From Marinobacter sp. (lineage in GTDB: Bacteria; Pseudomonadota; Gammaproteobacteria; Pseudomonadales; Oleiphilaceae), in the NCBI RefSeq assembly GCF_041595835.1, contig NZ_JBFHJO010000002.1:78752-142751 (forward strand): a stretch of DNA of 64,000 nt. Direction: 5' to 3'. The notes under the pieces are model-generated. The model worked only from the letters and a program-made list of their open reading frames with translations, was not told where the DNA came from and ran no database searches. The position numbers were made by a program, and so were the translations under genes. Shown in pieces: positions 5,587 through 41,969 of the stretch (positions are counted from its first letter, which is position 1; each line of letters opens with the position of its first letter).

Positions 5587-5715
5587 TTGTCCGACAAGTG
5601 AGAGTTGTCACAAAACAGTCTTTTTATTGAGCGAAGTGTAAAGTTTGGCTATACACTGATTGAATATTGTCACTCTTGATGGGTGGGGTGCGAATAATAA
5701 ATCAGGAAAGCTGTC

Positions 5716-7106: not shown

Positions 7107-7133
7107 CCTGCCGTTGTCTGCTAGGAAGGCAGG
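7107..7133 (+). promoter_or_regulatory. GC hairpin (CCTGCC-N15-GGCAGG) in the tssB leader/promoter region
   Basis: 6-bp inverted repeat 50 bp upstream of the tssB start. Confidence 0.3.
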
Positions 7134-7181
7134 CATAAAGGACTGAAATACGCTGCAAATGAATTGCACAGGGAGCACGTC

Positions 7182-16352: not shown

Positions 16353-16361
16353 GGATATCAC

Positions 16362-20835: not shown

Positions 20836-21473
20836 CCCTGAAAGAGAAAATCCAACATGGCCTGCTTGGTCTGGTGCTGTTGTTGGCGAGCAGCAGCAGC
20901 TTGGCTGATCTGCGTCTGAGCAGAGCGGAAACCTGCTCGAAAGAAGCCAACCGGCTGGCAAGGCTGGCCTGTTTTGATGAGGTGTTTGGCACACCACTGG
21001 CTCGCTATGAAGAAGGCACAAAGGCGGTGGTAATTCATCAATCTGAGCGCTGGCGCCAGGCTTTTGCACAGTCAGGTCATGATGACACCGGAGGCGTGAT
21101 TTATCGGAATACCGGCACAGTGGCCGGGCATCTTGTGACGGTTACGGCCCTGGGTACTCAGCCTCCACGGCCGGTGCTGACGCTGCAGTGCCATAACAAC
21201 ATCACCGAGCTGATGGTGATGCTACCCGAACCGACAGGCCTGGAGCGGGTTGACGTAACTCTGGGCTCGGAGCGCAGCCAATGGCGAGTGCGGGACGAAG
21301 GCTTAGTGGTAAGTGCCGGTAGAGGTCTGCCCGCCATTCGGCTGGTGTCGGGGGTAGCCAGCCAGCCCGACGCCAGAATTCACGCCAATGCACCGGAACT
21401 GGATGGTCTGTTGTTTGACCTGAGCGGCTATGAAGACGCTATCAAGCCGTTACGAAAAGCTTGCGGCTGGTAA
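20832..21473 (+). CDS. T6SS-associated secreted protein occupying the vasI position (signal peptide, ~213 aa)
   Basis: MTLKEKIQHGLLGLVLLLASSSSLA signal peptide; ATGA coupling to vasH stop; location between vasH and tssA identical to V. cholerae vasI. Confidence 0.6.
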   Translation: MTLKEKIQHGLLGLVLLLASSSSLADLRLSRAETCSKEANRLARLACFDEVFGTPLARYEEGTKAVVIHQSERWRQAFAQSGHDDTGGVIYRNTGTVAGHLVTVTALGTQPPRPVLTLQCHNNITELMVMLPEPTGLERVDVTLGSERSQWRVRDEGLVVSAGRGLPAIRLVSGVASQPDARIHANAPELDGLLFDLSGYEDAIKPLRKACGW

Positions 21474-21485
21474 GGAGGGAGCCTC

Positions 21486-22931: not shown

Positions 22932-22955
22932 CGCCCGTCCGCATTAAACGCAGGA

Positions 22956-25900
22956 ATGGATACCATGTGGAGAAAAGCATTACTCATTGGACGTTGGCTT
23001 CTGCCGTACCTCCGGAACGCTGCTCCGGTTGTTCTCGTGTTGAGCCTTATTGCCCTGCTGGTGGCAACCTGGTGGCTTGGCCCTCGCCTGGAAATTAATG
23101 ATGAATACCCTTTGGTTGCCTGGCAAATGCGGGCTCTGGTTACCCTTGGAGTGATTCTGTTGGTCGTGATGTTCTGGGGCATGGCCCTGGCTCGTCGCTT
23201 GGGTAAGGTCAACAAGGCCAAGGCCGCTGAGCAACAGGAGCAGGAAGATCCGATTCTGCCCATGGAGCGGCGGCAGCAACGCCTGCTCGACCGGCAGTTG
23301 CAGGCACTAAAAAGCAATTTGCCCGGTCGCAAAGGGCTGTATCGCTTGCCCTGGTATCTGGTGATGGGGCTGGAAGATGCCGGTAAAACCAGCTTGATTC
23401 AACGTTCGGGGCAAACCTACACACTAACCAATGTCACCCGTAACAATCGGAGAGAGCGTAACCCCTTTGGTTTTGATTGGTGGATTGGTGACCACGGCGT
23501 ACTGATTGATCCGGATGGTGAGCTGCTGAGTCAAAACCAGGGCGAAGGTGCCACGAGCGAAATTCAGAATCGGTTGTGGAACCACTTTATCGGCTGGCTG
23601 GAACGCAGCCGGCCGCAACGTCCTCTGAACGGTATTATTCTGGCTGTAGATTTGGCTCGACTGAGCGCCGAGGGCGATCAGCAACGTCAAGCCCAGGCGA
23701 TTCTGCTGCGGACGCGCGTGCGGGAATTGATGGAGCAACTAGGCTCACGCCTGCCAGTGTATGTCACCTTCACGAAAATGGACCTGCTGTACGGTTTTAC
23801 GCCTTTTGTTCGCACCTTGTCGAAGCTGGAAAAAGAGAAAGCACTTGGCTTTACTTTCCGGCTGGAGAGCCAGCAAGACCATGACCAATGGCTTGAGCAG
23901 TTTGCTGACCGATATGCACAAATGGTGGACGAGTTAAGCCAGCGCTTACCGGATGTACTTTCAGATACCCGAGATCCCGAAGAACGGGCTGCCGTATATT
24001 CGTTTACCCGTCAACTGGCCGGGCTTAAGCCGGCCATTGAGCAATTTCTCAGTGACCTGCTGTCAGCCGATGCCTTTTCAACCCCGGCCCTGGTCCGAGG
24101 TTCCTATTTCACCTCCGTTCTTCAGGAAGGTGTGCCGGAAGATGCCTTTGTGGCTGCAGCGGCCCGCAATTACCAGATCAGCAGCCCCATTCAACCGGCC
24201 CAGCGCAGTGGGCAGTCTGTCAGCTTGTTTACCAAAGATCTGTTTCCTGAAGTAATTTATCGGGAAGCAGGATTGGCCGGTGACAATCGCAAGGTTGTGA
24301 TCAAGCGCCGCAGGAAGGTTGCGTTCGCGGCTATGGTTGCCCTTTGTGCCGGAGCTGGCATAACTGCCGGCTGGCAGCACTATTTTATCAAAAATGCTGA
24401 AGCCGCTGTCCAGGTGGAAAACCGGGTTAACTCCTTCCTCAACAACTGGCAGCCTGTGGGTTACGAGCCAGACAGTACTGGCCGAAACCTGCTCCAGCCA
24501 CTGGATGAACTGCGGGAAGCCACGCTGGCTTTCGGCGACTACCGCAAGGAATGGCCGTTGGTCACCGATATGGGACTGTATCAGGGCCATAAAGTCGGGC
24601 CGGAAGTTGATACAGCCTATCTGGACATGCTGGCCTATCAATATCTGCCGACTTTGATGTTCGGTGTGATGGAAGAAATGGGCCAGGCACCCGACAACAG
24701 TACGGAACGGCTGGAGCACTTGCGAGTGCTTCGCATGATGTACGATGAGAGCGGGCGTCGCAGCGATATTGTCTTTGCGTACATGCGGGAATACTGGCAA
24801 GTTCGATTCCCCGGTCAGCGGGATGTGCAAAATCGCCTGTACAGCCATTTACAGTACGCCATGACCCATACCAATCTGGCTGGAATGGCTGCAGAAGGTG
24901 ACCAGGCTGCAATTATGGCGCTGGCACCGTTCCGCAGTAGTGTTCAGTGGGCGCAGCATGAACTGGGTCGCATCAGTACACCGGACCGCGTTTACCAGGA
25001 TCTGGAGGCAGAAGCGCGCCGGGAATTGCAGTCGCCTCTGGAGTTGGCGCGCAGTTCGGGCCCGGCATTTTCCACCGTGTTCACCCGAGTTGATGCATAT
25101 GGGGAACCACTTGCCGGAGAACTACCAACTGAAGAGGACCCCATCGCAATCGATATGTTGTTGACGCGAGAGGGGCTGGAGAAGTGGTTCCTGCGTAAAT
25201 CTGGCTCTGTGACCGAGTTGGCGCTGGTTGATGCCTGGGTGCTTGGGCGCCGGAATGACGTTGACTTCAGTAAAGCGGACGAAGCTGAATTACTGGCCAG
25301 CCTGCAAACCCTGTATGCAGAGAACTACGCAAACACCTGGCGCACTGCGCTGAGTCGAGTCGACATTCACCGGTTTACAGATCTCAATCATGGGGTGCGT
25401 ATTCTGGAAAGCCTCACCAGCGGCCACCAACCGTTGGCCCGCTTTTTAGGTGAGATTCAGAATAATACTCGCCTGATTCCTGTGGGTGAGGGCGAAGCCG
25501 AAATAGCCCGGAAGCTGCTTGAGGAGTCACCTCATTTCAGAATGCTCCAGGATATCGAGCGCCAGTTTGATGAACTGAATCAGTTAACGCGAAAACAAGG
25601 TGATCATCCGACGGGGCTGGATGAAATTATGGTGGTGGTCACGGAACTGCACGAATATATGCGCAGTATTCAGGAGTCGCCGGATGCTGGTAAAGCAGCA
25701 CTGAGCGCAGCGCGAGCGCGCATGGGGCTTCAGGGTGCAGACCCTATATTCACTTTACAGCGCATGGCAGGCCATCAGCCAGAGCCGTTGAACCGCTTGT
25801 TGAATCGCCTTGCGACCGAGAGCTGGCGGGTTGTGCTTGATAAGGCTGTGGCTCAGCTTGAGCGAGAGTGGTACAGGGAGGTGTATCAGCCATTCCAGCA

Positions 25901-26549
25901 GAATCTGGCTCGCCACTACCCATTTGCCTCCGAAGCGGGTCGGGACGCTGCCCTGCAGGATTTTGAGCGATTTTTCGCACCGGACGGCATACTGGAAAAC
26001 TTCTACAACGACAACCTGAAACTGTTCCTGGAAGATCACCCTGAACAGGTGGGCGATGCCCGTAAAGCAAGCCTGGTGCGTCGGGATGTACTTGCTGCAC
26101 TGAACCGGGCACGACAGATTCGCCAGGCGTTCTTTACGCGAAGCGGAACTCTGGATGTAGAGTTTGCATTGGAGCCTTTGAACCTCTCCAATAATAAGCG
26201 CCGAGCCGTTGTCAATCTTGATGGCCAACTGGTGGAGTTCTCTCATGGGCCGCGCCAGAGCATACCTTTGGTATGGCCCAATACCTTGCGGGATGCGGTA
26301 GAAAGCCGAATTACTTTGGTGCCGGTACAGGTCAACCGTTCGCCCAGGAGTATTTCGGAAAATGGCCCCTGGGCATTGTTCCGGTTGTTGGATAAAGCAG
26401 ATATCACTGGCGTCAGTAGTAACGCGGTGGACGTGATGTTCAAAGTGGATGATGGCGAGATGCGTTACCGCCTGCATGCGGCCAGTAATACCAACCCGTT
26501 CACACAGCAGCTACTTGCAGGCTACCGAATTCCCCGCAGCTTGTATTAA
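22956..26549 (+). CDS. tssM: T6SS membrane-complex subunit TssM (IcmF/VasK)
   Basis: 1197 aa; N-terminal TM helices, P-loop GLEDAGKTSLIQRSG, IcmF-related C-terminal region. Confidence 0.95.
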   Translation: MDTMWRKALLIGRWLLPYLRNAAPVVLVLSLIALLVATWWLGPRLEINDEYPLVAWQMRALVTLGVILLVVMFWGMALARRLGKVNKAKAAEQQEQEDPILPMERRQQRLLDRQLQALKSNLPGRKGLYRLPWYLVMGLEDAGKTSLIQRSGQTYTLTNVTRNNRRERNPFGFDWWIGDHGVLIDPDGELLSQNQGEGATSEIQNRLWNHFIGWLERSRPQRPLNGIILAVDLARLSAEGDQQRQAQAILLRTRVRELMEQLGSRLPVYVTFTKMDLLYGFTPFVRTLSKLEKEKALGFTFRLESQQDHDQWLEQFADRYAQMVDELSQRLPDVLSDTRDPEERAAVYSFTRQLAGLKPAIEQFLSDLLSADAFSTPALVRGSYFTSVLQEGVPEDAFVAAAARNYQISSPIQPAQRSGQSVSLFTKDLFPEVIYREAGLAGDNRKVVIKRRRKVAFAAMVALCAGAGITAGWQHYFIKNAEAAVQVENRVNSFLNNWQPVGYEPDSTGRNLLQPLDELREATLAFGDYRKEWPLVTDMGLYQGHKVGPEVDTAYLDMLAYQYLPTLMFGVMEEMGQAPDNSTERLEHLRVLRMMYDESGRRSDIVFAYMREYWQVRFPGQRDVQNRLYSHLQYAMTHTNLAGMAAEGDQAAIMALAPFRSSVQWAQHELGRISTPDRVYQDLEAEARRELQSPLELARSSGPAFSTVFTRVDAYGEPLAGELPTEEDPIAIDMLLTREGLEKWFLRKSGSVTELALVDAWVLGRRNDVDFSKADEAELLASLQTLYAENYANTWRTALSRVDIHRFTDLNHGVRILESLTSGHQPLARFLGEIQNNTRLIPVGEGEAEIARKLLEESPHFRMLQDIERQFDELNQLTRKQGDHPTGLDEIMVVVTELHEYMRSIQESPDAGKAALSAARARMGLQGADPIFTLQRMAGHQPEPLNRLLNRLATESWRVVLDKAVAQLEREWYREVYQPFQQNLARHYPFASEAGRDAALQDFERFFAPDGILENFYNDNLKLFLEDHPEQVGDARKASLVRRDVLAALNRARQIRQAFFTRSGTLDVEFALEPLNLSNNKRRAVVNLDGQLVEFSHGPRQSIPLVWPNTLRDAVESRITLVPVQVNRSPRSISENGPWALFRLLDKADITGVSSNAVDVMFKVDDGEMRYRLHAASNTNPFTQQLLAGYRIPRSLY

Positions 26550-27464: not shown

Positions 27465-28559
27465 TCACCTTTGTACCACAGCCTCCGGCCCGTTCAGCAT
27501 GGCGATCAACGGATTTTTCCGGAAGATGTAATCTCTGAGCAAATAACCTAGCAAAAGTCCGAGCATAAACCCGCCCAGGTGTGCCGCCCAGGCCACGCCG
27601 CCCTGTGCAGTGAACATGCCGAACAGGTTAATCAGGCTCCAGATCAGGAAGTACCAGTGGGGTGCGAGTTTTTTCTGGTAAATGATGATCATGAAAGTAA
27701 GGCTGGCGTGGCGGAACCACATCAGATACAGGCCGAAAAGAGCCGCAATCGCACCGCTGGCGCCAACCAGCAGCAAAGGGCCCTGGCTGCTGTCGAATAC
27801 CAGTAATTCGATCAACGCTGCCACCGCTCCCATGAACAGGTAGAGCCCCAAAAAGGCACTATGGCCCAGGGCATCTTCAAGATTGTCGCCAATAATCCAT
27901 AGGAAATACATGTTGCCGGCCAGATGCATCAGGCCACCGTGGACGAACTGGTAGGTCAATAGTTGCAGGGCAAAGTGTATGGGGCTTTGGGTCTCTGAGT
28001 TCAGCGCCAGGTTCAGGAAAATCCATTCATTCGCTGCCGGTGACAGCAGGCCAGTGCCGAAAATCAGGCCACACAAAACAACCAGCGTTCGCGTAACCCA
28101 GGGGGTTCGATGGGGCTGTATGTTGTACTCCACCGGCATAGCCGTCAGAAACTGGAATAACCAGGACTTCCAGGTCACTTTCTGATTCAAGGTTGTTAGG
28201 GCCTGCTTCAGCCTGGGTGAGTGCATGACCTGATCTATTTCATGTTTATCGAGCCAGACACCATCACAGTCCGGGCAGCAGTCGATTTCAGTAGTGTAGT
28301 GCGTAAGTAACTGATAGTGGGTCATCGGTACCCGGCAACGCCTGCACAAGCGGTCGCTGGTGCGAAGGGCTGGGCCGAGATGAAGCTCGTGACTGTACTG
28401 TTCTATAAACTCGTGCTGCTGTGCAATGGCCTGGTTCAGTGATCCGTCTTCAAACCAGACGCCGTGGCAGTGCCGGCAGTTAAGTATGGCCGGGTTGCTG
28501 GTAGGCGTCAGGCTGCCAATCGTGCAGGAAGGACAAAGTTTAGCGTGTGTTCTGGGCAT
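27465..28559 (-). CDS. rhomboid-family intramembrane serine protease with two N-terminal zinc-ribbon modules
   Basis: N-terminal CPSC...CRHCHGVW and CRRC...CPDCDGVWLD zinc ribbons; C-terminal 6-TM rhomboid core with GASGAIAALFG (catalytic Ser) and AHLGGFMLG (catalytic His). Confidence 0.85.
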   Translation of the reverse strand: MPRTHAKLCPSCTIGSLTPTSNPAILNCRHCHGVWFEDGSLNQAIAQQHEFIEQYSHELHLGPALRTSDRLCRRCRVPMTHYQLLTHYTTEIDCCPDCDGVWLDKHEIDQVMHSPRLKQALTTLNQKVTWKSWLFQFLTAMPVEYNIQPHRTPWVTRTLVVLCGLIFGTGLLSPAANEWIFLNLALNSETQSPIHFALQLLTYQFVHGGLMHLAGNMYFLWIIGDNLEDALGHSAFLGLYLFMGAVAALIELLVFDSSQGPLLLVGASGAIAALFGLYLMWFRHASLTFMIIIYQKKLAPHWYFLIWSLINLFGMFTAQGGVAWAAHLGGFMLGLLLGYLLRDYIFRKNPLIAMLNGPEAVVQR

Positions 28560-28633
28560 GAAATCCTTTTCCTGATTCAGCGGAGGCTTCGGTGTCTGTT
28601 CCGGAGCCTGTAGAAATAAGTGGTCCGTATGGG

Positions 28634-28963
28634 TTAGTCAGATTCTGTCAGGTAGTTGTGGGCAAAGGCCTGTAAGTCCTCTGAGACACGCTGACGAATG
28701 GTCGCCCGGTCTTGCGGAGCAAGGTTATACTTCCGGGCCAGCAGTTCGAAGTCTTCGTCCTTGAGGGTAATGGTCAGCCGGGGGCGGGCTCTGCCTTTAC
28801 GATAGGGCAGCTGGAGAACCTTGCGTACCATATCGGCGGTGCTCATATCCTGCATGGCAGCAGACACCCGGAAAGCTCTTTGAATATCGTTGGAGAGGTC
28901 GAAGGCCATTTGTACGGCCTGAACCGCCTGCTCTTCTTTTGACCAATCCGGTTTGTTTGCCAT
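28634..28963 (-). CDS. hypothetical small protein, possible ribbon-helix-helix DNA-binding fold
   Basis: 109 aa; segment RPRLTITLKDEDFELLARKYNL resembles an RHH beta-strand/helix; immediately downstream of the PspA-family gene. Confidence 0.5.
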   Translation of the reverse strand: MANKPDWSKEEQAVQAVQMAFDLSNDIQRAFRVSAAMQDMSTADMVRKVLQLPYRKGRARPRLTITLKDEDFELLARKYNLAPQDRATIRQRVSEDLQAFAHNYLTESD

Positions 28964-28971
28964 GAGTATAA

Positions 28972-28994
28972 CCTGAGGGTTATGCCCCCGGCAT
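28972..28994. other. perfect GC hairpin ATGCCCCCG-gcatg-CGGGGGCAT between the PspA-family gene and the small gene (attenuator/terminator candidate)
   Basis: 9-bp perfect stem; T-rich run only on the plus-strand side. Confidence 0.35.
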
Positions 28995-29009
28995 GCGGGG
29001 GCATCGATT

Positions 29010-29705
29010 TTATTGTGCGGACTTATCTTTGAGGCGAGCTAGTACGCTATTTACAGCGTCTTGTTCGCCATCAATGCCGGCAGCTTTCAGCTTTTCGTCC
29101 AGATCGGCACCGGTCAGCTCTTTTTCAAGGCTGGCGTTGGCGGTTTGTCGATCTTCTTCCCGGGCCTGGCGCTCACGGATGCGCTCCAGAGTTTCTTTGG
29201 CGGTGCTCAGGGAGGATTGTTGACTGTTGATGTTGGTGTCAATCTGGGCGGTGGTGCGCAGCACACGCTCGTTGGTTTTCACCACTTGCAGTTCCCTGCG
29301 ATAGTCACCCAGTTGTTTCTCTGCGCGTTGTACTCGCTCTTTCAGCCCTGCAATTCGCTGTTGCAGCAATTCCCGGGTCTGAGTCAGTTCTGCGGCACGG
29401 CGTTCATGGCCAACAATGCGTTCGGCGACTTCTCTGGCCAAATCTTCCTGACCGGCAGCGATGGCCTTGCGGGCATCTTGCTCTCGTTTGCTGGAGCTGT
29501 CTTGTTCAGAGCGAATCTGGCGTGCTAAAGATGCTGATTCAGCCATCAGTCCGGCAAGCTCATGTTTGGCTTGTTTCAGCTCTTGCTCAGCATCGCGTAG
29601 TTCCTGTTCCAGAATACGGTTGCCCTGGTTATCCACTACGGCTTCACCCAGTTCGTTAACGCCACCGCGCATAGCGGTCAGAATCTTTTTCAGTACGGAT
29701 CTCAT
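29010..29705 (-). CDS. PspA/IM30 (ESCRT-III-like) family protein, YjfJ-like
   Basis: 231 aa all-helical coiled coil; N-terminus MRSVLKKILTAMRGGVNELGEAVVD...ILEQELRDAEQEL typical of PspA/IM30; size and partner gene match E. coli yjfJ. Confidence 0.8.
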   Translation of the reverse strand: MRSVLKKILTAMRGGVNELGEAVVDNQGNRILEQELRDAEQELKQAKHELAGLMAESASLARQIRSEQDSSSKREQDARKAIAAGQEDLAREVAERIVGHERRAAELTQTRELLQQRIAGLKERVQRAEKQLGDYRRELQVVKTNERVLRTTAQIDTNINSQQSSLSTAKETLERIRERQAREEDRQTANASLEKELTGADLDEKLKAAGIDGEQDAVNSVLARLKDKSAQ

Positions 29706-29719
29706 GTCTCAGCCCTCAT

Positions 29720-30124
29720 TTAAGCCAGGTAGTCTTCAAATGTCTGTAACAGGTCGATGGCATTTTCGGCCAGTGTGACCAGTTCCTGCATGATTTCGGC
29801 TGTGCCGGAGGTTGGGCTGAGAGCGCCATATACCACATAGTGGTCCCCGGTTTTACCGAGAGAGCTTAGTGGCATGGGAACGCTGATGCGTAGCATGTTT
29901 TCATGCAGGTCCTGTATGCGCTCCGGGTTCAGTTCCTGTTCATTAAAAAGATACGCAAGACACAGAATCTGCGTGTCGGTTACGGTAACGTACACCGGTG
30001 TTTCTTCTGCCCCGGAAACGGTTACTTGCAGTACCGGTTCATCCCCGGAAATGGGCATAACGTCGAAGGTTCGGCCTGCATGGGTAGCGTCTCCCAGGGC
30101 CAGGGTGAGAGTTTGAATATCCAC
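29720..30124 (-). CDS. YjfI-like small cytoplasmic protein (DUF2170-like), partner of the PspA-family gene
   Basis: 134 aa, 14-nt spacing to the downstream PspA-family gene, same order and sizes as E. coli yjfI-yjfJ. Confidence 0.55.
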   Translation of the reverse strand: MDIQTLTLALGDATHAGRTFDVMPISGDEPVLQVTVSGAEETPVYVTVTDTQILCLAYLFNEQELNPERIQDLHENMLRISVPMPLSSLGKTGDHYVVYGALSPTSGTAEIMQELVTLAENAIDLLQTFEDYLA

Positions 30125-30188
30125 AAATAGCTCCTTCCTGTGGCGTTGAACCGGTTCGGCCGATTCGAACGGACCGTGTCCTATGGCT

Positions 30189-30205
30189 TGACATTTTATG
30201 TCAAT
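30189..30205. promoter_or_regulatory. perfect palindrome TTGACA-ttttA-TGTCAA in divergent promoter (operator candidate; also a perfect -35 hexamer on both strands)
   Basis: 17-bp perfect inverted repeat in the AT-rich region between yjfI-like (-) and yqiJ-like (+) genes. Confidence 0.5.
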
Positions 30206-30256
30206 AAACTGAGTCTATACCTCGCAATTAAACATTTGCAAGAGTTAGTTTGTTTG

Positions 30257-30271
30257 CGTTATAACGTTTTT
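30257..30271. promoter_or_regulatory. second palindrome TGACA-caaac-TGTCA in the same divergent promoter
   Basis: Same half-site as the 30189 site, 68 bp away, 57 bp upstream of the yqiJ-like start. Confidence 0.45.
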
Positions 30272-30327
30272 TCGTTTGACACAAACTGTCAGTCACTCGT
30301 TTTTCCAGAACGGATGTCCAGTCGCGT

Positions 30328-30954
30328 ATGGAAACATTCTTCATTGTAGCTTTCTCTTTTCCAACGGTGGTTTTTTCCGTTCTATTGTGTGTAGCCATTA
30401 TTTATTGGCTGATCTCTCTGCTTGGTATGGGGGATATAGACGCAGACGGTGAAATTGACGCCAGTGGCGACTTTAGCGGCCTGATGGTGACTCTGGGGCT
30501 TCAGGGTGTACCGCTTCCGCTGGTGCTGACGCTTTTGTTCCTGTTTGGCTGGCTGGCCAGTTATTTTATGGATCTTATTTTCGGTGCGCTTGTTCCCGGT
30601 AGTGTGTTGCACTGGCTATTTGGAATTGTCGTTATTTTTGTGGCACTGGTGGTTGGTGTGCTGACTACCGCGGTTGTTGTTCGTCCGCTCAGGCCCCTGT
30701 TCCGTCGCGCATTCTTACCGCCGCTTCAAAAGCGAATTATCGGTACTCCCTGTGTCGTGCTTTCTTCAACGGTGACTGAAACCTCTGGCAGGGGTGAAAG
30801 TATTCTTGATGGTGCTCATCTGGTGCTTCAGATTCGCAGCCATTCGCCGTTGTCCCATCGGGATAGGGCCGTCATTATTGAACATATTCCGGAACACAAT
30901 GCCTGGTGGGTGGTCCCGGAATCGGAATTTCATTCCGGTGATTCTGCCGGATAA
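30328..30954 (+). CDS. NfeD/YqiJ-like inner-membrane protein (TM region plus C-terminal OB-fold), flotillin partner
   Basis: 208 aa; hydrophobic N-terminal two-thirds, C-terminal beta-rich domain (GTPCVVLSSTVTETSGRGESILDGAHLVLQI) typical of NfeD-type partners of SPFH proteins. Confidence 0.7.
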   Translation: METFFIVAFSFPTVVFSVLLCVAIIYWLISLLGMGDIDADGEIDASGDFSGLMVTLGLQGVPLPLVLTLLFLFGWLASYFMDLIFGALVPGSVLHWLFGIVVIFVALVVGVLTTAVVVRPLRPLFRRAFLPPLQKRIIGTPCVVLSSTVTETSGRGESILDGAHLVLQIRSHSPLSHRDRAVIIEHIPEHNAWWVVPESEFHSGDSAG

Positions 30955-30998
30955 CGCTGACTTAATCTCCCTTTCAACCAGCTCAGGAGAATTGCTAA

Positions 30999-33002
30999 AT
31001 GGATTTATCGTGGATGATGCCGGCACTGATGACCGTTGGTGTTCTGGTCTTGCTGATACTGGGTGTGCTTACCCTGTTCAAAGCGTTCTATCGTAAAGTA
31101 GATCAGGGCCAGGCACTGATTGTGAACGACCTTTCGCCAACGCCGAAGGTGTACTTCACCGGTGCCATGGTGTTGCCGGTTATCCACCGCGCCGAGACCA
31201 TGAAAATCTCGGTTATCACACTGGAGTTGAACCGTACTGGCAAGGAAGGGTTGATCTGTAAAGATAATTTGCGGGCGGATATCACCGTTGCTTTCTATCT
31301 GCGTGTGAATGAAACCCCGGAAGATGTTCTTCGGGTTGCCAAGTCGGTTGGAGTTGGTCGTGCTTCAGACCGTGATGCGGTGAACGAGTTGTTCAACGCC
31401 AAATTCAGTGAAGCGCTGAAAACCGTGGGTAAGAAGCTGGAGTTTATGCAGCTGTTTGAAGAGCGCCAGCACTTCCGTGACTCCATCATTGAAACCATTG
31501 GTGAAGACCTTAACGGCTATATCCTTGAAGACGTAGCTATCGATTACCTGGAGCAGACGCCAAAAACGTCGCTGGATCCGAACAACATTCTGGATTCCGA
31601 GGGCATCAAGCGGATTACTGAAATTACGGCATTCCATAATGTCGAGACGAACCGCTTAGAGCGTGATCAGGAACTGGAAATTCAGCGCAAGAACGTATCT
31701 GCCCGTGAAGCCTCGCTGGAGCTGGAGCGCAGTCAGGCTGATGCGGAAGCTCGTCAGCGCCGCGAAATTGAAACCCTGCAGGCTCGTGAAACGTCGGAAA
31801 CTGAGCAGGTGCGCGAACAAGAACGAGCCCGGGCTGAAGCTGCTCGCATCAAGACCGATGAGGAGCTGGCCATTGCGGAAGAGAACAAGCAGCGCCAGAT
31901 TGAAATGGCACAAAAAGCCCGTGAACGTGCGGTACAGATTGAAGAAGTACGGATTCGCCAGGCTCGCGAACTTGAAGATGTAAACCGTGAACGTGCGGTT
32001 GAAATCGAGCGGATTGGTATGGAAAAAGCGCTGGAAGGTGAGCGCAAAGAAATTGCCGACATCACCAGCCAGCGGATTGCGGTTGAGCGCAACGTGGCGG
32101 AAGAGGAAGAGAACATCAAGGATGTTCGCAACCGTTCCGAAGCTGAGCGTTTGAAAGTTACGAAAGTGGTGGCGGCTGAAGCCGATGCGGATGAACTGAA
32201 ACTGAAGGATGTGAAAGCCGCAGAAGCCGCGTTTGAACGCTCTAAACTGGAAGCAGAACAGATTCGTGTTACGGCGCAGGCGGAGCTGGATGCCGCTGAG
32301 AAGCAAGCCATCGCTGATGAAAAACGGGCTCGTGGTCGTCAGGCTATGTCTGCTTCTGACGGGTTGGCTGAAGCACAGGTTCGAGAAGCTCAGGCCTCTG
32401 CCATTCGTGCGGATGGCCTGGCCCGTGCCGAGGTTAAAACCGCCACAGCCAAAGCGGATGAAGACGCTGGTATGGCGGAAGTTCGAGTGCTGGAACAGCG
32501 GCTTGAAACGGAAGCTATGGGTGAAGAGAAGCTGGGTCTGGCGAAGGCCGATGCCCGTAAGGCCATGGTTCTGGCTGAGGCCGAAGGTGAGGAGCGTATG
32601 GGCCATGCGAAAGCGGAAGCCCGTGAAGCTATGGCGAAGGCTGAAGCTTCTGGCTTGGTAGAAAAACTGAAAGCGTACGATGGAATGTCTGAAGAAGCCC
32701 GTCACTTTGAAGAATTCCGTATGAACCTGGAAGTTCATGAGAAAGAAGTAATGGCCAGGATTGAAGCTCACCAGACGGGCATTCTGGAAAATGGCCGGGT
32801 AATGGCTGCCGCATTGAAGGATGCCAAGTTTGAAATGATCGGTGGTGATGGCGGTATCTTCGAGAAGTTCGCCCAGGGAATGGGTTATGGCAAGAGCGTA
32901 CAGGGCGTCCTGGACAAAAGCCCATCGCTACAGGCTGCTTTAGCGGGCATTGCCGGGCGGGTTGCGGGTGACAAGTCCGGCGATACCTCTGAGTCGGCTT
33001 AA
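30999..33002 (+). CDS. flotillin-family SPFH/band-7 protein with long Ala/Glu-rich coiled-coil (YqiK-like)
   Basis: N-terminal TM plus SPFH domain, then ~400 aa of EA-rich heptad repeats. Confidence 0.85.
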   Translation: MDLSWMMPALMTVGVLVLLILGVLTLFKAFYRKVDQGQALIVNDLSPTPKVYFTGAMVLPVIHRAETMKISVITLELNRTGKEGLICKDNLRADITVAFYLRVNETPEDVLRVAKSVGVGRASDRDAVNELFNAKFSEALKTVGKKLEFMQLFEERQHFRDSIIETIGEDLNGYILEDVAIDYLEQTPKTSLDPNNILDSEGIKRITEITAFHNVETNRLERDQELEIQRKNVSAREASLELERSQADAEARQRREIETLQARETSETEQVREQERARAEAARIKTDEELAIAEENKQRQIEMAQKARERAVQIEEVRIRQARELEDVNRERAVEIERIGMEKALEGERKEIADITSQRIAVERNVAEEEENIKDVRNRSEAERLKVTKVVAAEADADELKLKDVKAAEAAFERSKLEAEQIRVTAQAELDAAEKQAIADEKRARGRQAMSASDGLAEAQVREAQASAIRADGLARAEVKTATAKADEDAGMAEVRVLEQRLETEAMGEEKLGLAKADARKAMVLAEAEGEERMGHAKAEAREAMAKAEASGLVEKLKAYDGMSEEARHFEEFRMNLEVHEKEVMARIEAHQTGILENGRVMAAALKDAKFEMIGGDGGIFEKFAQGMGYGKSVQGVLDKSPSLQAALAGIAGRVAGDKSGDTSESA

Positions 33003-33010
33003 AAAGCCCA

Positions 33011-33050
33011 TGGCACCGCTGCTTCTTAAGAGAGTGGTGCCAGTTTTTAT
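33011..33050 (+). terminator. putative Rho-independent terminator after flotillin gene
   Basis: TGGCACC-N18-GGTGCCA stem followed by GTTTTTATT. Confidence 0.5.
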
Positions 33051-33085
33051 TCAAGTTCCTCTCCCCCAGTTCAGGAAGATTTGGT

Positions 33086-36000
33086 ATGTCGACGGATCGC
33101 TCCGGCCTTGAAAGCATCATTCAGGAAGGCTCTGCTTTTGAAACCATTCAGCGTCGGCTGAAAGAGCAGGGGGGGCAACTGCGCTCGCAGGTATCCGGGT
33201 TGAATCAGACCCGTGAAGAAATTTTCGGCAGTGCCAGTATGAGTGTGCTCGGGCGGGCCCGGGTCAGAACCGAGAATAACGCCATTCCACGTGATGTGGT
33301 GCGTCTGGGTGACAAGCTGTTGTTTGGCTTTAACCTGCAACTGGGGTTGCGTAAAACCCTGGAAATAGACGATGTCTTTTGCCTGTATCACCTGAACGAC
33401 GGTGATGATGGCTTTGAAATGACCGAAGCCACCATTGAAGGGACTTTCCTGAAGGATGCCCGGTTTGCCACTGACTTCCGGGAGCTGCAGCAGTACTACA
33501 ACACGGCCACGCTGTCTCAGCTGGTGATCCTCAAAGGCATGCTGCTGATGGCGTTTCGCATCGGCGACAAGCTGGATGATCTGCGGATTTTCCGCTGGGA
33601 GCTGACGCCGGGTGGCGATGTCAGTCGCTATATCGACAATCGGGGTGAGCGGGATCTGACTTTCCCTGAACGCTTCAGTTTTCCCTGGAAACCCGTTGGT
33701 CGTGATTTGCAGGTTCAGGGCCGCTCTCCGCACCTGAACATTGCTGACACCTTGTTTGTGGATAACCTGCGGGGTGACATTACCTTCAAGGTGGAAAACA
33801 ATACTGCCACCGGGGAAGGCATTTATGCAGATCCGGTAGAATCGGACTCTCAGTCTCTGGACGACGCCACGTTTGAATACGCCGACCTGGGCGAGATTCT
33901 TCTGGTGCGGATTCTGCCCTTCAATGAAAAACTTTGGCGCTATTACCTGTTCAACCGTACCCAGCGAAAAATTGAACGGGTGGATAGCATGGCGGGTTCG
34001 GTGGCATCGCTGCCGGATAATCATGGCCTGATCTTCCCCTCCGGCTACTACCTCACTACCGGTGAACTGAAAACCTTCCAGATCCCGGAAGGCGACTTCC
34101 GCCTCAAGCGTTCGTTGCGCTCGCCTAACGGTGAGGATGTGCTGTATGTGTTTTTTGAGCAGCTTACCGGGCAGGTCATTCTGTTCCGCTACAATCTGAT
34201 CCGTAAACAAGCGGATGTGCCGTTGATCGGCCATGGGTTTGCGCTCTTTGAAAATGGCCATCTGGTGGTTTTCAATGCGGATAATGAGCCGACGCTGGTG
34301 CACCCGCTGCAGGTTTGGGATACGCCGTTTACCTCGGAGAGTTTCCATGCACAGGCCAGTGTTGCTAATGATTCTGAACTGGCCCGTATCGGTAACCCGG
34401 ATTTGGTGCGCGGCATTGCTGAACTGAATACGGTTATTACCCTGGTAGAAGCCAAGAGCGCCAGTGAGCGTCACTTTACAGCACTGATCCGTACCGTAGA
34501 CCGTGTTCTCGACCAGTTTTACTGGCTTACAGCGAGGCAGGATGAAGCGCTGTTTGCTGGCTTGCATGAGCAGCTGAGCACGATTCGCAATACCGCCGAG
34601 TTGGTGCTGGACGAATACGAAAAAGTGCAGAGCATCCGGGCGCAAACAGAAATGGCTATCAGTGAAGTGGCCGATGTTCAGAGTGCCCTGATGCGCGATC
34701 TGAAACCGGATAGCTGGAAAGCGCCAGATCAGTTTGTGGGTTATCTGGCCAGGCTTCGGGAACACCGGGGCCGGGTGCGGACGCTGAGTGATCGCCGCTA
34801 CGCAGACAAAAACCGCATAGAGGCCCTGGAAAAGGAGCTGGCGGAGGCGGAAGAGAGGCTGACGGATCGAACGTTCCGTTTCCTTGCTTCGCCCGAAGCT
34901 TTAGAGGGTTACCGCAATACCCTGGCAGAATTGCAAGCCGCACTGGCGGAAGCCGGAAGCCGGGATGCTTTGAAAAAGATTGTAGAGCGATACCGGGAGC
35001 TGACCACCGGTCTGGATATGATTCAGGGCATGCTGGCTTCCATGGCGGGTGATGATGCTGCGCTGGAAACGGCCATCACCGATAACATTTCGGGGATATA
35101 CGCCAGTATCAATCAGCAGCGTTCAGAAGCAGAAATTCGCCTGAAAGAGCAGGGCAGTGCCGAGGCGCGGGCTCAGTTTGCCGCCCGGATCCGGCTGTTT
35201 GAGCAGAGTCTGGCAAACGGCGTCAGTGCGCTTTCAGATGTGCGGGAATGTGATGGTTTGATGACCCGCATGCTTGATCAGCTACAAGAGCTCGAGAGCC
35301 AGTTTGGTGAGTACGATGAGTTTCTTGCTGCCGTTCTGGAACAGCGTGAAAACGCCCACGAAAGTATTGAGGCCCGGCGTCAGCAGCTTCAGGATCAGCA
35401 GCAACGCCGGGTAACAACGTTGACGGATGCGGCTGAACGTATTCTGAAAAACGTCAGTCGCCGAACGGAACGTTTTTCCAGCCCGGAAGAACTGCACGCT
35501 TTCTTTGCCTCCGATGCCATGGTGGCGCGCCTGCGCAGCATGGCTGAAGAGCTTCGTGACCTGGGCGCAGCTATGGAAGCTGACGATTGCCTGGGGCAGC
35601 TGAAAGCCACTCAGGATACCGCTCTGCGCAGCGTGCGGGACAAAGCTGACATCTTCGAAGAAGGTGGCGCGGTTATTCGTCTCGGCAGGCATAAGTTCAG
35701 CGTAAACCAGCAAGAGCTGGATCTCACTCTGATTCCCCGGGATGACCATGTGCTGCTACACCTCACCGGCACCCAGTATTACGAACGGCTGGATGAGCCG
35801 GAACTGGATCGCCTGCGGGGTTACTGGAACATGAGCCAGCCGTCTGAGTCCGACAAGGTTTACCGGGCTGAGTATCTGGCAGCGCTGGTGATTGAAGAAT
35901 TCCGGAAGTCGTCTGATTTACCGGTGAACGTTGCCGATGTTGAAGAGCTGACTGGTTATATTCGTCATTTTGCTTCGCCCCGTTATCGTGAAGGCTACGA

Positions 36001-38338
36001 GAAAGGTATCCATGACCACGATGCCGCATTGCTTGTCAGAACCTTGTGGCCCGCCATTCAAAACGCCGGACTGCTGCGCTTCAGCCCGAATGCCCGTGCG
36101 CTGGCTATGCTGTTCTGGGCAGAGCTGATTCAACAGAAGATTTCTGCACAACAGCTGCGTTCTCGCTGCCTGTCGGCTGGCATACTGAGGCGCATGATGC
36201 AGTCCAATGAATTGCTGCAGTCTCTGGAGCAGGAGCTTGGGCCAAAGTTGTCGGAATTTGTTGAGATTCATGAGCTCAGATTAACCGAAAAAGGCAGTGC
36301 CGAACGCACTCTGCTGAAATCCGCAGCCCAGTATCTGGTTTTACAGTTGGCAGAAGAAGCAGAAGCCTTTGAAATCACTCGCTATGCCGGTGAGCTGGCC
36401 GAAGGCTTTATTGAAGCCCTGAAGAGGGATAATCAGTTTGCCCAGTACGAGACGGCGTTAAATGTGGTGGCCGGAAAGCCTGCCGCGCGCTGGAGCATCA
36501 CCAGCCATTGGGTAAAAGCCTGGATGGGCAAGGCCAACCAGCAGCATTTACTGCATTACCTGCCGGAAGTGGTGGCGGTGCTCAACGCCGGAGACGCTAT
36601 CTCTACGGCCGTACGCAGTGTTGAACTGGCGTTTGAGGTTGACGGTTTGCTGGGTCAGCATGCCAGCATTAACGATCGGTCCCTGAGCCTGCAGCTGGAT
36701 GAGTTCGATGAACGCCTGCGTTATCATCAGCAGGAAGTCATTCCCGGTTGGCAGCAGTTACAGGAAGTCCGTCATAAGGTTTTGGCAAAATGGCGCGACC
36801 AGCTGCGCCTTGAGGAATATCGGCCCCGGCCGCTGTCGTCGTTTGTGCGCAATAAACTGATCAGTGAGAGCTATCTGCCAATCATTGGCGACAACCTGGC
36901 CAAACAGATGGGCACTGCAGGTGAAGACCGTCGCACAGACCAGTCCGGCTTGCTGATGATGATCTCGCCGCCAGGTTACGGTAAAACCACCCTGATGGAA
37001 TATGTCGCTAACCGCCTGGGCCTGATCTTCATGAAGATCAACTGCCCGAGTTTAGGCCACGATGTCACCTCGCTGGACCCGGAAAAAGCCCCCCATTCCA
37101 CCGCCGAAGCGGAGCTGGTCAAGCTTAACCTCGCTTTGGAGATGGGCAACAACGTGATGTTGTATCTGGATGATATCCAGCATACCCATCCTGAATTTCT
37201 GCAGAAATTCATTTCCCTGTGTGACGGCACCCGGCGCATTGAAGGCGTATGGCGTGGTCGAACCAGTACGTATGACATGCGTGGCAAGCGGTTCTGCGTG
37301 GTGATGGCCGGTAATCCCTATACCGAAAGCGGCGAAATGTTCAAAGTGCCGGACATGCTGGCGAACCGGGCGGATATCTACAATTTGGGTGATGTGTTGT
37401 CGGGCATGGAGCATGCCTTTGAGTTGTCTTACATAGAGAATAGCCTCAGTGCCAACCGGGTGTTGGCACCTTTGGCGACCCGGGGTATGGCAGACTTCTA
37501 TCGGTTTGCGGATCTGGCCGAAGGCAAAACAGTGGCGGATTCGGATTTCGAGCACGACTACAGTGCTGCCGAGCGGGATGAAATTGTTTCCCTGCTGAAG
37601 AAGATGATGCGGGTGCGGGAAACCGTTCTGCGGGTAAACCAGGCGTACATTGCTTCCAGTGCTCAGGCTGAAGCCTATCGTACTGAGCCTGCCTTCAAGT
37701 TGCAGGGCAGCTACCGGAACATGAACAAACTGGCGGAAAAGCTGTCGCCGGTCATGAGTGACAAAGAACTGGAAGCCCTGATTGACGATCACTACCAGGG
37801 TGAATCTCAGCTGCTGACTCAGGGCGCGGAAGAGAATTTGCTTAAACTCAAGCAGATGCGAGGCACCTTAACCGAAGCTGAAGCTGCCCGGTGGCAGGCT
37901 ATCTGTGAAGAATATCGCCGGCGGCAGCAGGCTGGAGGTGACGAAGAAACCGGCGTGAAAGTGGTACGCCAACTGGGTGTGATTGCTGAACAAATGCAGC
38001 AATTGGGACAACAGTTGGCCGCAGGCCTGGAAAGTCAGAAAGGTTCTGAACCAGATCTCGGTCAAGCCCTGGGGCAACTGTCCCGCTCCCTGGAAACCGG
38101 CCTGACCGAAGGTTTACAGTCTGTGCAACTGAGCCCCTCAGTGACGGTAAATCTGGATAGTCCTCCACAGGTTGGCGAAGCCTTGATGGCCTTTGCCCGG
38201 ATTTTTGAGGAATCCATCGTGCCATTGGTGAAAACCATGGACGGTAAGTTGGACCTGGATCTGAAAACCCAAACGGAAATGAGCCGGGTGTTGAAAGTGA
38301 TTCGGGAGCTGCAAGATCGATTGCTGGAACGGAAATAG
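33086..38338 (+). CDS. giant (1750 aa) multidomain protein: N-terminal beta-rich region, long central helical region, C-terminal MoxR-like AAA+ P-loop ATPase module
   Basis: Single uninterrupted ORF; Walker A ISPPGYGKTTLMEY, Walker B VMLYLDDIQH, MoxR/AAA_5-type sensor segment FCVVMAGNPYTESGEMFKVPDMLANRADIYNL around aa 1290-1460; no close match to any family I can name. Confidence 0.85.
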   Translation: MSTDRSGLESIIQEGSAFETIQRRLKEQGGQLRSQVSGLNQTREEIFGSASMSVLGRARVRTENNAIPRDVVRLGDKLLFGFNLQLGLRKTLEIDDVFCLYHLNDGDDGFEMTEATIEGTFLKDARFATDFRELQQYYNTATLSQLVILKGMLLMAFRIGDKLDDLRIFRWELTPGGDVSRYIDNRGERDLTFPERFSFPWKPVGRDLQVQGRSPHLNIADTLFVDNLRGDITFKVENNTATGEGIYADPVESDSQSLDDATFEYADLGEILLVRILPFNEKLWRYYLFNRTQRKIERVDSMAGSVASLPDNHGLIFPSGYYLTTGELKTFQIPEGDFRLKRSLRSPNGEDVLYVFFEQLTGQVILFRYNLIRKQADVPLIGHGFALFENGHLVVFNADNEPTLVHPLQVWDTPFTSESFHAQASVANDSELARIGNPDLVRGIAELNTVITLVEAKSASERHFTALIRTVDRVLDQFYWLTARQDEALFAGLHEQLSTIRNTAELVLDEYEKVQSIRAQTEMAISEVADVQSALMRDLKPDSWKAPDQFVGYLARLREHRGRVRTLSDRRYADKNRIEALEKELAEAEERLTDRTFRFLASPEALEGYRNTLAELQAALAEAGSRDALKKIVERYRELTTGLDMIQGMLASMAGDDAALETAITDNISGIYASINQQRSEAEIRLKEQGSAEARAQFAARIRLFEQSLANGVSALSDVRECDGLMTRMLDQLQELESQFGEYDEFLAAVLEQRENAHESIEARRQQLQDQQQRRVTTLTDAAERILKNVSRRTERFSSPEELHAFFASDAMVARLRSMAEELRDLGAAMEADDCLGQLKATQDTALRSVRDKADIFEEGGAVIRLGRHKFSVNQQELDLTLIPRDDHVLLHLTGTQYYERLDEPELDRLRGYWNMSQPSESDKVYRAEYLAALVIEEFRKSSDLPVNVADVEELTGYIRHFASPRYREGYEKGIHDHDAALLVRTLWPAIQNAGLLRFSPNARALAMLFWAELIQQKISAQQLRSRCLSAGILRRMMQSNELLQSLEQELGPKLSEFVEIHELRLTEKGSAERTLLKSAAQYLVLQLAEEAEAFEITRYAGELAEGFIEALKRDNQFAQYETALNVVAGKPAARWSITSHWVKAWMGKANQQHLLHYLPEVVAVLNAGDAISTAVRSVELAFEVDGLLGQHASINDRSLSLQLDEFDERLRYHQQEVIPGWQQLQEVRHKVLAKWRDQLRLEEYRPRPLSSFVRNKLISESYLPIIGDNLAKQMGTAGEDRRTDQSGLLMMISPPGYGKTTLMEYVANRLGLIFMKINCPSLGHDVTSLDPEKAPHSTAEAELVKLNLALEMGNNVMLYLDDIQHTHPEFLQKFISLCDGTRRIEGVWRGRTSTYDMRGKRFCVVMAGNPYTESGEMFKVPDMLANRADIYNLGDVLSGMEHAFELSYIENSLSANRVLAPLATRGMADFYRFADLAEGKTVADSDFEHDYSAAERDEIVSLLKKMMRVRETVLRVNQAYIASSAQAEAYRTEPAFKLQGSYRNMNKLAEKLSPVMSDKELEALIDDHYQGESQLLTQGAEENLLKLKQMRGTLTEAEAARWQAICEEYRRRQQAGGDEETGVKVVRQLGVIAEQMQQLGQQLAAGLESQKGSEPDLGQALGQLSRSLETGLTEGLQSVQLSPSVTVNLDSPPQVGEALMAFARIFEESIVPLVKTMDGKLDLDLKTQTEMSRVLKVIRELQDRLLERK

Positions 38339-38363: not shown

Positions 38364-38380
38364 CTAGACAATTGGTCTAG
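38364..38380. promoter_or_regulatory. TetR-family operator candidate CTAGAC-AATTG-GTCTAG upstream of the tetR-family gene
   Basis: 6-bp perfect inverted arms 20 bp upstream of ATG 38400; same half-site repeated at 39029 and 39115. Confidence 0.55.
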
Positions 38381-38399
38381 CCGGGCTTAGAATTTCGCC

Positions 38400-38993
38400 A
38401 TGGAACCAAAAGTAGCAAGTCATGATGTGCGCAGCCACATCCTGGAAACAGCCCAAACCATCATCAGTGGCAAGGGATTCAGTGCTGTCGGATTAAACGA
38501 AATCCTGCAGACTGCCGGGGTGCCTAAAGGATCTTTCTATCACTATTTCGGGTCCAAAGAAGCCTTTGGTGAAGAGTTGCTCAAGAGCTATTTTGCCGAT
38601 TACCAAGAGACTCTGGATGCCATGCTTTCTCGTACAGGCCTGTCAGGTGCGGAGCGCCTGATCGGCTACTGGGAGTCCTGGCTGGAAACCCAGTCGGCCT
38701 GCGACCCGAAAGGAAAATGCCTCACTGTTAAGCTTGCCGCAGAAGTCAGTGATTTGTCGGAGCCGATGCGTGTTGTCCTGGAGCGGGAAACGGCTCGCGT
38801 CATTGCTCGCTTGGAGCAGGCGATTGAGGATGGTATCGCTGATGACTCTTTACCGGCTTCTTTAGATGCAAAGTTAACGGCGTCAACGCTTTACCAGTTG
38901 TGGCTGGGGGCGAGCCTGCGCAGCAAAATCACTCGTGACCGCGAGCCCATGGAGTGTGCGTTGGCGGCAACGCGCGCATGGCTTGGTCTGTGA
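38400..38993 (+). CDS. TetR/AcrR-family transcriptional regulator
   Basis: N-terminal HTH ILETAQTIISGKGFSAVGLNEILQTAGVPKGSFYHYF is the TetR_N signature; 197 aa. Confidence 0.85.
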   Translation: MEPKVASHDVRSHILETAQTIISGKGFSAVGLNEILQTAGVPKGSFYHYFGSKEAFGEELLKSYFADYQETLDAMLSRTGLSGAERLIGYWESWLETQSACDPKGKCLTVKLAAEVSDLSEPMRVVLERETARVIARLEQAIEDGIADDSLPASLDAKLTASTLYQLWLGASLRSKITRDREPMECALAATRAWLGL

Positions 38994-41919: not shown

Positions 41920-41969
41920 TCACTCCGTCACGGGGGTATCACTAACAGGACGTTTTGAGGCAAAGGATT

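Follow-up and report, generated by a model that had tools for sequence, protein, structure and literature searches.

A divergent YjfI–PspA and NfeD–flotillin–ATPase locus in Marinobacter as a probable version of a known proteobacterial envelope-stress system, with a candidate repressor and operator

A 64-kb stretch of Marinobacter sp. contig NZ_JBFHJO010000002.1 (hereafter the window, numbered from its first nucleotide) contains a compact locus in which a YjfI–PspA unit on the minus strand faces an NfeD–flotillin–ATPase unit on the plus strand across a 203-bp spacer, as determined from open reading frame (ORF) listings and family scans. We consider it likely that this locus corresponds in Marinobacter to an envelope-stress system that is known and widespread among proteobacteria, represented by the Bac operon of Pseudomonas aeruginosa and by the gene neighbourhood of Ravi et al. 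(PMC11237479), and that it works by the mechanism proposed below. A preliminary description of positions 28634–33002 had pointed to the physical coupling here of two modules that are unlinked in Escherichia coli. This is no new coupling of E. coli-type modules: it is already published, and the locus is a rearranged, two-promoter form of a single described operon type. Seven genes of one system belong together here, encoding YjfI, a PspA paralogue, a 109-aa protein, a zinc-ribbon/rhomboid fusion, an NfeD-fold protein, a flotillin and a giant AAA+ ATPase. The functional unit is wider than first described and reaches 27465–38338; the earlier start coordinate, 28634, is the end of the conserved 109-aa gene, which had been left unnamed. 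A candidate repressor/operator pair and the rhomboid/zinc-ribbon association would be incremental additions to the published system. The features of the locus are as follows.

27465–28559, minus strand: zinc-ribbon and rhomboid fusion, 364 aa (Pfam)
28634–28963, minus strand: conserved 109-aa protein, probably a single-chain tandem ribbon-helix-helix regulator
28982–29004: GC-rich hairpin with a 9-bp stem, between the PspA-like gene and the 109-aa gene
29010–29705, minus strand: PspA/IM30-family protein of YjfJ type, 231 aa (Pfam; BLASTP to YjfJ)
29720–30124, minus strand: DUF2170/YjfI protein, short form, 134 aa (Pfam; similarity to E. coli YjfI)
30125–30327: divergent control region, 203 bp, 43% GC (blocks conserved in seven Marinobacter species)
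30189–30203: operator-like palindrome 1, TGACATTTTATGTCA, 65–79 nt upstream of the yjfI start
30214–30219, minus strand: putative −10 of the yjfI promoter, TATAGA, inside the invariant AGTCTATA block
30237–30242: putative shared −35, palindromic TTGCAA, in an invariant TTTGCAA block
30260–30265, plus strand: putative −10 of the nfeD–flotillin–ATPase promoter, TATAAC, in an invariant TATAA block
30277–30291: operator-like palindrome 2, TGACACAAACTGTCA, 37–51 nt upstream of the nfeD-like start
30328–30954, plus strand: NfeD-fold membrane protein, 208 aa
30999–33002, plus strand: SPFH/flotillin-family protein, 667 aa (Band_7; similarity to YqiK)
33086–38338, plus strand: giant ATPase with DUF3686, DUF7902 and AAA+ domains, 1750 aa (Pfam)

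The N-terminus of the ATPase was aligned with diverse homologues and one genome per species was scanned, which identified ATPase relatives in at least 579 species genomes. The best 80 of these loci were fetched with 10-kb flanks and their ORFs were searched with the window proteins. Wherever the sequence suffices, the NfeD-like, flotillin and ATPase genes follow in the same order, and every locus with sufficient upstream sequence has the NfeD-like gene immediately before the flotillin gene. Sixty-seven loci with at least 2.5 kb upstream were informative, and YjfI–PspA is directly adjacent to NfeD–flotillin–ATPase in 40 of them, spanning gamma- and betaproteobacteria. These comprise 33 co-directional strings, with gaps of 8–150 nt (typically tens of nucleotides), and seven divergent loci (six Marinobacter and one Halopseudomonas). 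Among the 80 metagenome loci retrieved through the 109-aa gene, 37 hold both yjfI and an NfeD-like gene, and in these too the two blocks adjoin, 31 times co-directionally and six times divergently. The linkage is thus not unique to this strain.

The usual order elsewhere is YjfI–PspA–(109-aa gene)–(rhomboid)–NfeD–flotillin–(zinc-ribbon protein)–ATPase in one co-directional operon. The five core genes (YjfI, PspA, NfeD/YqiJ-like, flotillin and DUF3686-AAA+ ATPase) are all adjacent in the window, where they form two divergent units rather than one. Six other Marinobacter species, six metagenome loci and one Halopseudomonas locus have the same layout, and in Marinobacter it has the appearance of an inverted first block. 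In the Halopseudomonas locus (L034, 4764–15823, from a metagenome-assembled genome, MAG), PspA and YjfI run one way while rhomboid, NfeD, flotillin, ATPase and zinc-ribbon protein run the other, with no 109-aa gene and no palindrome. As its divergent layout is independent, the split arrangement arose more than once.

The nearest named gene pairs in E. coli K-12 are unlinked, as previously pointed out (yjfIJ at 4.41 Mb, yqiJK at 3.19 Mb), and 25 of the 67 informative loci carry NfeD–flotillin–ATPase without a neighbouring PspA, so the ATPase module is not strictly dependent on a linked PspA. Both facts would suit a yjfIJ-like and a yqiJK-like pair that lie back to back by chance in one strain and are functionally unconnected. 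Chance adjacency is, however, excluded by the synteny counts, in which the modules adjoin in 40 of 67 loci and mostly form one co-directional string. The same rare palindrome also precedes both units, and the P. aeruginosa homologues are reported to be co-transcribed (PMC10948618), which leaves a chance pairing barely credible.

The neighbourhood has already been described as 'CesT/Tir-PspA + TM-band-7-flotillin + novel AAA+ + YqiJ/YuaF', sometimes with a PLD hydrolase, and abbreviated band-7/YqiJ/AAA+ operons without PspA were found to be more widespread (Ravi et al. 2024, PMC11237479). These are the same five components as in the window plus an optional PLD gene, and the abbreviated form agrees with the 25 of 67 loci noted above. 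The main text of that study contains no mention of a rhomboid, protease or zinc-ribbon partner, and describes neither a divergent arrangement nor an operator (PMC11237479). In P. aeruginosa, bacABCDEF (PA3732 to approximately PA3727) encodes BacA (DUF2170), BacB (PspA), a 23-kDa membrane protein, a 76-kDa protein and the products of two more genes (PMC2587700, PMC10948618). bacA–F were reported to be co-transcribed, and a bacA mutant has higher levels of the BacB–F proteins (PMC10948618). Hyperosmotic shock causes PA3731 to accumulate, and a PA3731 mutant shows defects in biofilm formation, swarming, rhamnolipid production and virulence (PMC2587700). Like the YjfI–PspA unit of the window, the Bac operon starts with DUF2170 and then PspA, and its later protein sizes fit the NfeD-like, flotillin-like and downstream components, although BacC–F are matched to these families by size and by way of other Pseudomonas species rather than from the P. 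aeruginosa locus itself. Those other Pseudomonas loci read YjfI–PspA–NfeD–flotillin–ATPase–(rhomboid/PLD). The Pseudomonas form differs from the Marinobacter locus in being a single co-directional operon with a longer BacA (approximately 206 aa, with the DUF2170 domain from residue 66), and its loci have neither the 109-aa gene nor GACAT-N3-ATGTC.

More distant systems share only parts of this organization. E. coli yjfIJ(KLMC) encodes true sequence relatives of the first two proteins, of nearly the same size. In yqiJK, YqiK is a flotillin with 29% identity to that of the window, while YqiJ has the same size and the same place upstream of the flotillin gene as the NfeD-like protein but no detectable sequence similarity to it. 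Neither of the two E. coli regions fetched holds a giant ATPase, ribbon-helix-helix gene or rhomboid gene, and no operator motif lies in front of yjfI. The Bacillus subtilis pspA-ydjGHI operon follows the same logic as PspA, flotillin and zinc-ribbon domain in the Marinobacter locus, joining PspA to an SPFH protein and a membrane partner with two zinc ribbons, YdjG (PMC8581546, PMC11237479), but it uses other families (the soluble SPFH protein YdjI and the TPM-domain protein YdjH) and lacks both an AAA+ ATPase and YjfI. With the classical PspFABC and ESCRT-III/Vps4 systems the locus shares a PspA/ESCRT-III-fold polymer as presumed effector, and the co-encoded AAA+ ATPase is reminiscent of Vps4. 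Unlike classical Psp, the locus has no PspB, PspC or PspF domains among the neighbours and no sigma-54-like promoter in the spacer, and the only nearby sigma-54 activator belongs to a type VI secretion system (T6SS) cluster.

A preliminary description of the spacer as an AT-rich promoter region of about 200 bp agrees with its length of 203 bp and with a GC content of 43.3%, compared with 54.3% for the window, which places it in the lowest 0.9% of 203-nt windows. The spacer matches no Rfam family. Outside it, base composition is like the rest of the window, so the term 'island', if taken to mean horizontal acquisition, is not suggested by the data. The 64 kb contain exactly two matches to TGACA-N5-TGTCA, where 0.03 would be expected; both are in the spacer, one before each unit. 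Across seven Marinobacter species the half-sites of both palindromes do not vary, whereas the spacer around them does, and palindrome 2 is 88% complementary to palindrome 1. A single co-regulated system including the giant ATPase had been proposed beforehand, and this proposal is supported by synteny (40/67), by the shared invariant palindrome and by the single transcript reported for P. aeruginosa (PMC10948618). For the two divergent units of the window, this is in silico support for co-regulation.

The palindrome recurs far beyond Marinobacter, together with the 109-aa gene. Homologues of the 109-aa protein follow YjfI–PspA in 14 genome loci, and all 14 carry the core motif GACAT-N3-ATGTC upstream of yjfI, compared with one of 66 related genome loci without the gene. 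A metagenome scan seeded with the 109-aa family yielded 265 relatives, and in the 80 loci that were fetched the gene follows YjfI–PspA wherever the contig holds upstream sequence. Of the 51 metagenome loci that could be tested, 49 have the motif no more than 300 nt upstream of yjfI. In total, 89 copies occur in 618 kb, against roughly 0.6 expected by our own estimate (618 kb / 4^10). Some of the metagenome loci are of a spermine-synthase operon type and carry the same 109-aa family. In this sister operon (L145; also L118, L138, L142, L143, L146 and L161), with the order unknown gene, DUF350, spermine-synthase-like, YjfI, PspA, DUF4178 and 109-aa homologue, the palindrome is found at two places: upstream of yjfI and, about 3.8 kb further, before the first gene. 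Ravi et al. name a ribbon-helix-helix regulator only for this sister operon, as its last gene (PMC11237479). These associations suggest that the regulator and operator travel with the YjfI–PspA dyad.

The 109-aa protein is a conserved protein and probably a tandem ribbon-helix-helix regulator, with TraY, single-chain Arc and AvtR as the best fold matches of a low-confidence model (predicted local distance difference test score, pLDDT, of 63). Ribbon-helix-helix proteins are typically repressors that act on repeated operators. The palindromes could also be bound by another regulator, such as the TetR-family protein encoded at 38400–38993 or a global factor, with the 109-aa protein then serving, for example, as a PspA adaptor. 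Such an arrangement could draw on the weak model behind the ribbon-helix-helix assignment, on one locus with the motif but no 109-aa gene (L016), on a non-significant match of the 109-aa family profile to the yeast Vps4 MIT domain (E = 0.43, residues 49–103) and on the position of the TetR gene, 61 nt downstream of the ATPase gene. The TetR gene, though, has its own promoter-like site and is missing beside the ATPase gene from each of the six other Marinobacter loci in which both palindromes are kept, and motif and 109-aa gene occur together in 14/14 and 49/51 loci from distant taxa, including the spermine-synthase operon type. We therefore regard a different regulator as unlikely and favour the 109-aa protein as the candidate ligand of the palindromes. 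Two further ideas about this family were set aside: its likeness to Vps4 MIT was taken as chance, though curious beside an ESCRT-III-fold protein, and a search with a hidden Markov model of the family, filters off, found nothing to identify the N-terminal extension of long BacA as a fused 109-aa copy. The TetR gene was likewise dropped as the regulator; as it is not conserved beside the ATPase in other Marinobacter loci, it is probably unrelated to the cluster. It has a good promoter-like site at 38365–38393 and is followed by two alcohol-dehydrogenase-type genes.

Conserved blocks in the Marinobacter spacer are consistent with two promoters that would share a palindromic −35 element, TTGCAA; the putative −10 elements, TATAAC on the plus strand and TATAGA on the minus strand, both lie at a distance of 17 nt from it. 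From these putative positions, each palindrome would lie at roughly +5 to +19 of its transcript. In co-directional loci ranging from GC-rich betaproteobacteria to Pseudoalteromonas, the motif TTGACATRTTATGTC itself holds a perfect −35 hexamer that is followed 17 nt further on by a −10-like hexamer, and a second divergent lineage (L087–L089) has two operator copies per promoter, over the −35 and at the start site. A putative sigma-54 promoter was proposed for P. aeruginosa bacA (PMC2587700, PMC10948618). No sigma-54 site (TGGCAC-N5-TTGCW, up to two mismatches) was found at 30125–30327, and upstream of yjfI in related loci there was no convincing site, one weak candidate with two mismatches being present in L030.

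Pfam analysis identified the minus-strand genes much as the preliminary description had read them. The 134-aa protein (29720–30124) matches DUF2170 (PF09938, E = 2.5e-34, 118.4 bits against a cut-off of 27), is 37% identical to the 133-aa E. coli YjfI over 71 aa (E = 3e-12) and matches a solved chain, 8q8o, named 'DUF2170 family protein' (E = 8e-7). Its gene lies immediately upstream of the yjfJ-type pspA gene, 14 nt away. The BacA equivalog NF050185 of NCBIfam requires more than 300 bits over approximately 206 aa; the 134-aa protein scores 52 bits over profile positions 86–202 of 206, and by sequence it is the short form, without the N-terminal extension of BacA. The 231-aa protein (29010–29705) matches PspA_IM30 (PF04012, E = 9e-42, 143.6 bits against a cut-off of 33.9, aa 3–228), is 32% identical to the 232-aa E. 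coli YjfJ over 225 aa (E = 7e-23) and matches solved Vipp1/PspA chains by sequence (E = 4e-6). It reaches only 19 bits against the cut-off of 243 for the PspA equivalog TIGR02977, which places it, on sequence criteria, nearer to E. coli YjfJ than to canonical PspA. The sizes of both proteins bear out the near-identity to E. coli yjfI/yjfJ that had been remarked upon (134 versus 133 aa and 231 versus 232 aa).

On the plus strand, the 208-aa protein (30328–30954) has three long hydrophobic helices followed by a C-terminal OB-like barrel, which is the NfeD-type arrangement of a membrane anchor and then an OB-fold barrel. Its earlier designation as a 'yqiJ-like NfeD protein' holds for the NfeD-type fold and for the position before the flotillin gene, but not for sequence: BLASTP gave no detectable similarity to E. 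coli YqiJ (E = 2.8), neither the protein nor any of 33 homologues matched any Pfam family (NfeD and DUF1449 included), and a profile of these 33 homologues returned only noise from PDB sequences. The protein is 100% identical to one NCBI Marinobacter sp. protein. Some database sources call its homologues 'DUF1449 family' or 'OB-fold-containing protein', and several records name them 'ubiquinone biosynthesis protein UbiH', an implausible name for an NfeD-fold membrane protein.

The flotillin (30999–33002), which begins 44 nt after the NfeD-like gene, is a trap for automated annotation. At full length (667 aa) it gave no Pfam match even at E ≤ 10, whereas residues 1–234 alone match Band_7/SPFH (E = 1.1e-11, 45.6 bits against a cut-off of 23.6). 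The loss of the full-length match is probably due to the HMMER bias filter being set off by the long Glu/Ala-rich tail; the translation shows a hydrophobic N-terminus and a long Glu/Ala-rich coiled-coil tail. No Pfam Flot domain was detected. The protein is 29% identical to E. coli YqiK over 468 aa (E = 4e-43, aligned through residue 469), and together with the Band_7 match this upholds its previous reading as a flotillin.

The giant ATPase that had been mentioned alongside these operons is a 1750-aa protein with DUF3686 (E = 1.5e-169), DUF7902 and AAA domains. It has a Walker A motif, ISPPGYGKTT (aa 1293–1302), and VMLYxDDIQHT (aa ~1356–1366), which we read as Walker B, within an AAA+ block (aa 1250–1600) that is the best-conserved part of the protein across 72 sequences. 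Its similarity to Rix7/NVL/p97 is only weak (E = 2e-3), no MIT domain could be found in it, and sequence comparison links its N-terminal 1100 aa to no solved structure. Marinobacter sp. KMM 10035 and SS5-14b have ATPases whose N-termini share 92% identity with this one, and the N-terminal region has been described as a beta-propeller plus coiled coil (Ravi et al. 2024, PMC11237479). PA3729 appears only as a background protein in a pull-down table (PMC8926400).

The name 'DNA repair ATPase', which stands in the Pfam description of DUF3686 and in many NCBI records, would make this a cluster for DNA metabolism and not for the membrane, and an ATP-dependent DNA ligase gene does lie about 3.6 kb downstream. 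We consider such a role highly improbable: a literature search returned no paper mentioning DUF3686, so that no evidence was found behind the label; Pfam detected no nuclease, helicase or DNA-binding domain in the ATPase; and its gene is always preceded by NfeD-fold and flotillin genes, often with PspA, rhomboid or PLD. The label thus has no support that we could find. The ligase gene (ligase and OB domains, 41955–42854) shows no sign of a link to the cluster.

The rhomboid gene also belongs to the system. Its product (27465–28559) matches Pfam Rhomboid (E = 9.6e-30, aa 199–342, 104 bits against a cut-off of 22.6) and contains two Zn_ribbon_TFIIB domains (E = 2.9e-12). The translation holds GASG and AAHLGG, which we read as catalytic motifs providing the GxSG serine and the histidine of a rhomboid protease. 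In other genomes, a rhomboid of approximately 185 aa and a zinc-ribbon protein of approximately 180 aa are encoded by separate genes in or beside the cluster, so the Marinobacter gene is a fusion of two recurrent accessory components. Genome loci with the short rhomboid number 18, those with the zinc-ribbon protein about 10 and those with PLD about 20. The separate zinc-ribbon protein is homologous to the N-terminus of the window fusion and is often encoded between the flotillin and ATPase genes, and one locus carries an M50B peptidase instead.

From these components we infer a role for the cluster in membrane integrity. Proteins of the PspA/Vipp1 type form ESCRT-III-fold polymers, which bind to membranes under stress and stabilise them; for PspA, a holding or regulating function probably falls to CesT-like YjfI/BacA; and SPFH proteins form membrane scaffolds with NfeD partners. 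In the proposed mechanism, the 109-aa protein would act as a tandem ribbon-helix-helix repressor on GACAT-N3-ATGTC-type operators that overlap both core promoters. Both units would be repressed and released together, with envelope stress lifting the repression. The PspA paralogue, with its presumed ESCRT-III fold, would then polymerise where the inner membrane is damaged, and YjfI would serve as its chaperone or antagonist, while NfeD and flotillin would assemble a membrane scaffold of SPFH type. The AAA+ ATPase may power remodelling or disassembly of PspA/flotillin polymers, analogous to Vps4, and the rhomboid may cleave a membrane component, either for signalling or for turnover. The role of the ATPase is the weakest link of this scheme, since the protein is only distantly like classical AAA proteins and has 1100 residues without a solved relative.

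Several observations weigh against this interpretation. In the Kangiellaceae MAG locus L016, two operator copies (5690–5745) lie upstream of a PspA gene with no 109-aa gene within 22 kb. The 109-aa protein is predicted to be all-helical, and alongside the low pLDDT of its model the ribbon-helix-helix Pfam matches fall below threshold. No promoter was picked up in the spacer by scanning for the sigma-70 consensus, so the −35/−10 assignment is drawn solely from conservation. To these are added the fruitless literature search for DUF3686 and the 25 of 67 loci in which the ATPase module has no PspA beside it. L016 is the one exception to the link between motif and 109-aa gene; it also has no YjfI within 22 kb, and a rhomboid gene (6607–7176) sits between its PspA gene and its NfeD-like gene.

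A bolder and more doubtful proposal is that the short-YjfI/PspA dyad, its own tandem ribbon-helix-helix repressor and the GACAT-N3-ATGTC operator might form a portable stress-sensing switch that is placed on differing effector sets (NfeD–flotillin–AAA+–rhomboid in one case, spermine-synthase genes in another), with the DUF3686 ATPase as a Vps4 counterpart that remodels PspA/flotillin polymers and the rhomboid processing a membrane partner. Ravi et al. (PMC11237479) have raised as an open question by what means bacterial PspA/ESCRT-III polymers are controlled and recycled in the absence of a Vps4-like ATPase. This cluster family, in which one control covers a PspA paralogue, an SPFH scaffold, a giant AAA+ ATPase and, in many cases, an intramembrane protease, is a natural place to test it. 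For the window itself, the annotation gains are that the names 'DNA repair ATPase' and 'UbiH' can be corrected, two 'hypothetical' genes can be described and the boundaries are widened to 27465–38338.

On the far side of the rhomboid gene, a T6SS cluster on the plus strand (16318–26549) encodes a ClpV-like ATPase (16318–19005), a sigma-54 activator (19072–20835), VasI, TssA/VasJ and TssM/IcmF (22956–26549), with VasH also present, and ends about 900 bp from the rhomboid gene. This proximity, and the frequent occurrence in defence systems of large ATPases that have membrane partners, could indicate that the locus serves in defence against phages or interbacterial attack and stands beside T6SS genes for that reason. 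PADLOC anti-phage models, however, gave only coiled-coil-type matches among the components (E ≥ 5.6e-4), the composition of the cluster is not island-like, and in other genera the cluster occurs in many different chromosomal contexts. A defence function is therefore very unlikely, and an envelope-stress system remains the preferred identity of the cluster.

Within the minus-strand unit, a perfect 9-bp GC-rich hairpin (28982–29004) separates the PspA gene from the 109-aa gene. As no T-run follows on the transcribed minus strand, the hairpin does not qualify as a typical terminator; it could set the ratio of PspA to the regulator and protease encoded downstream.

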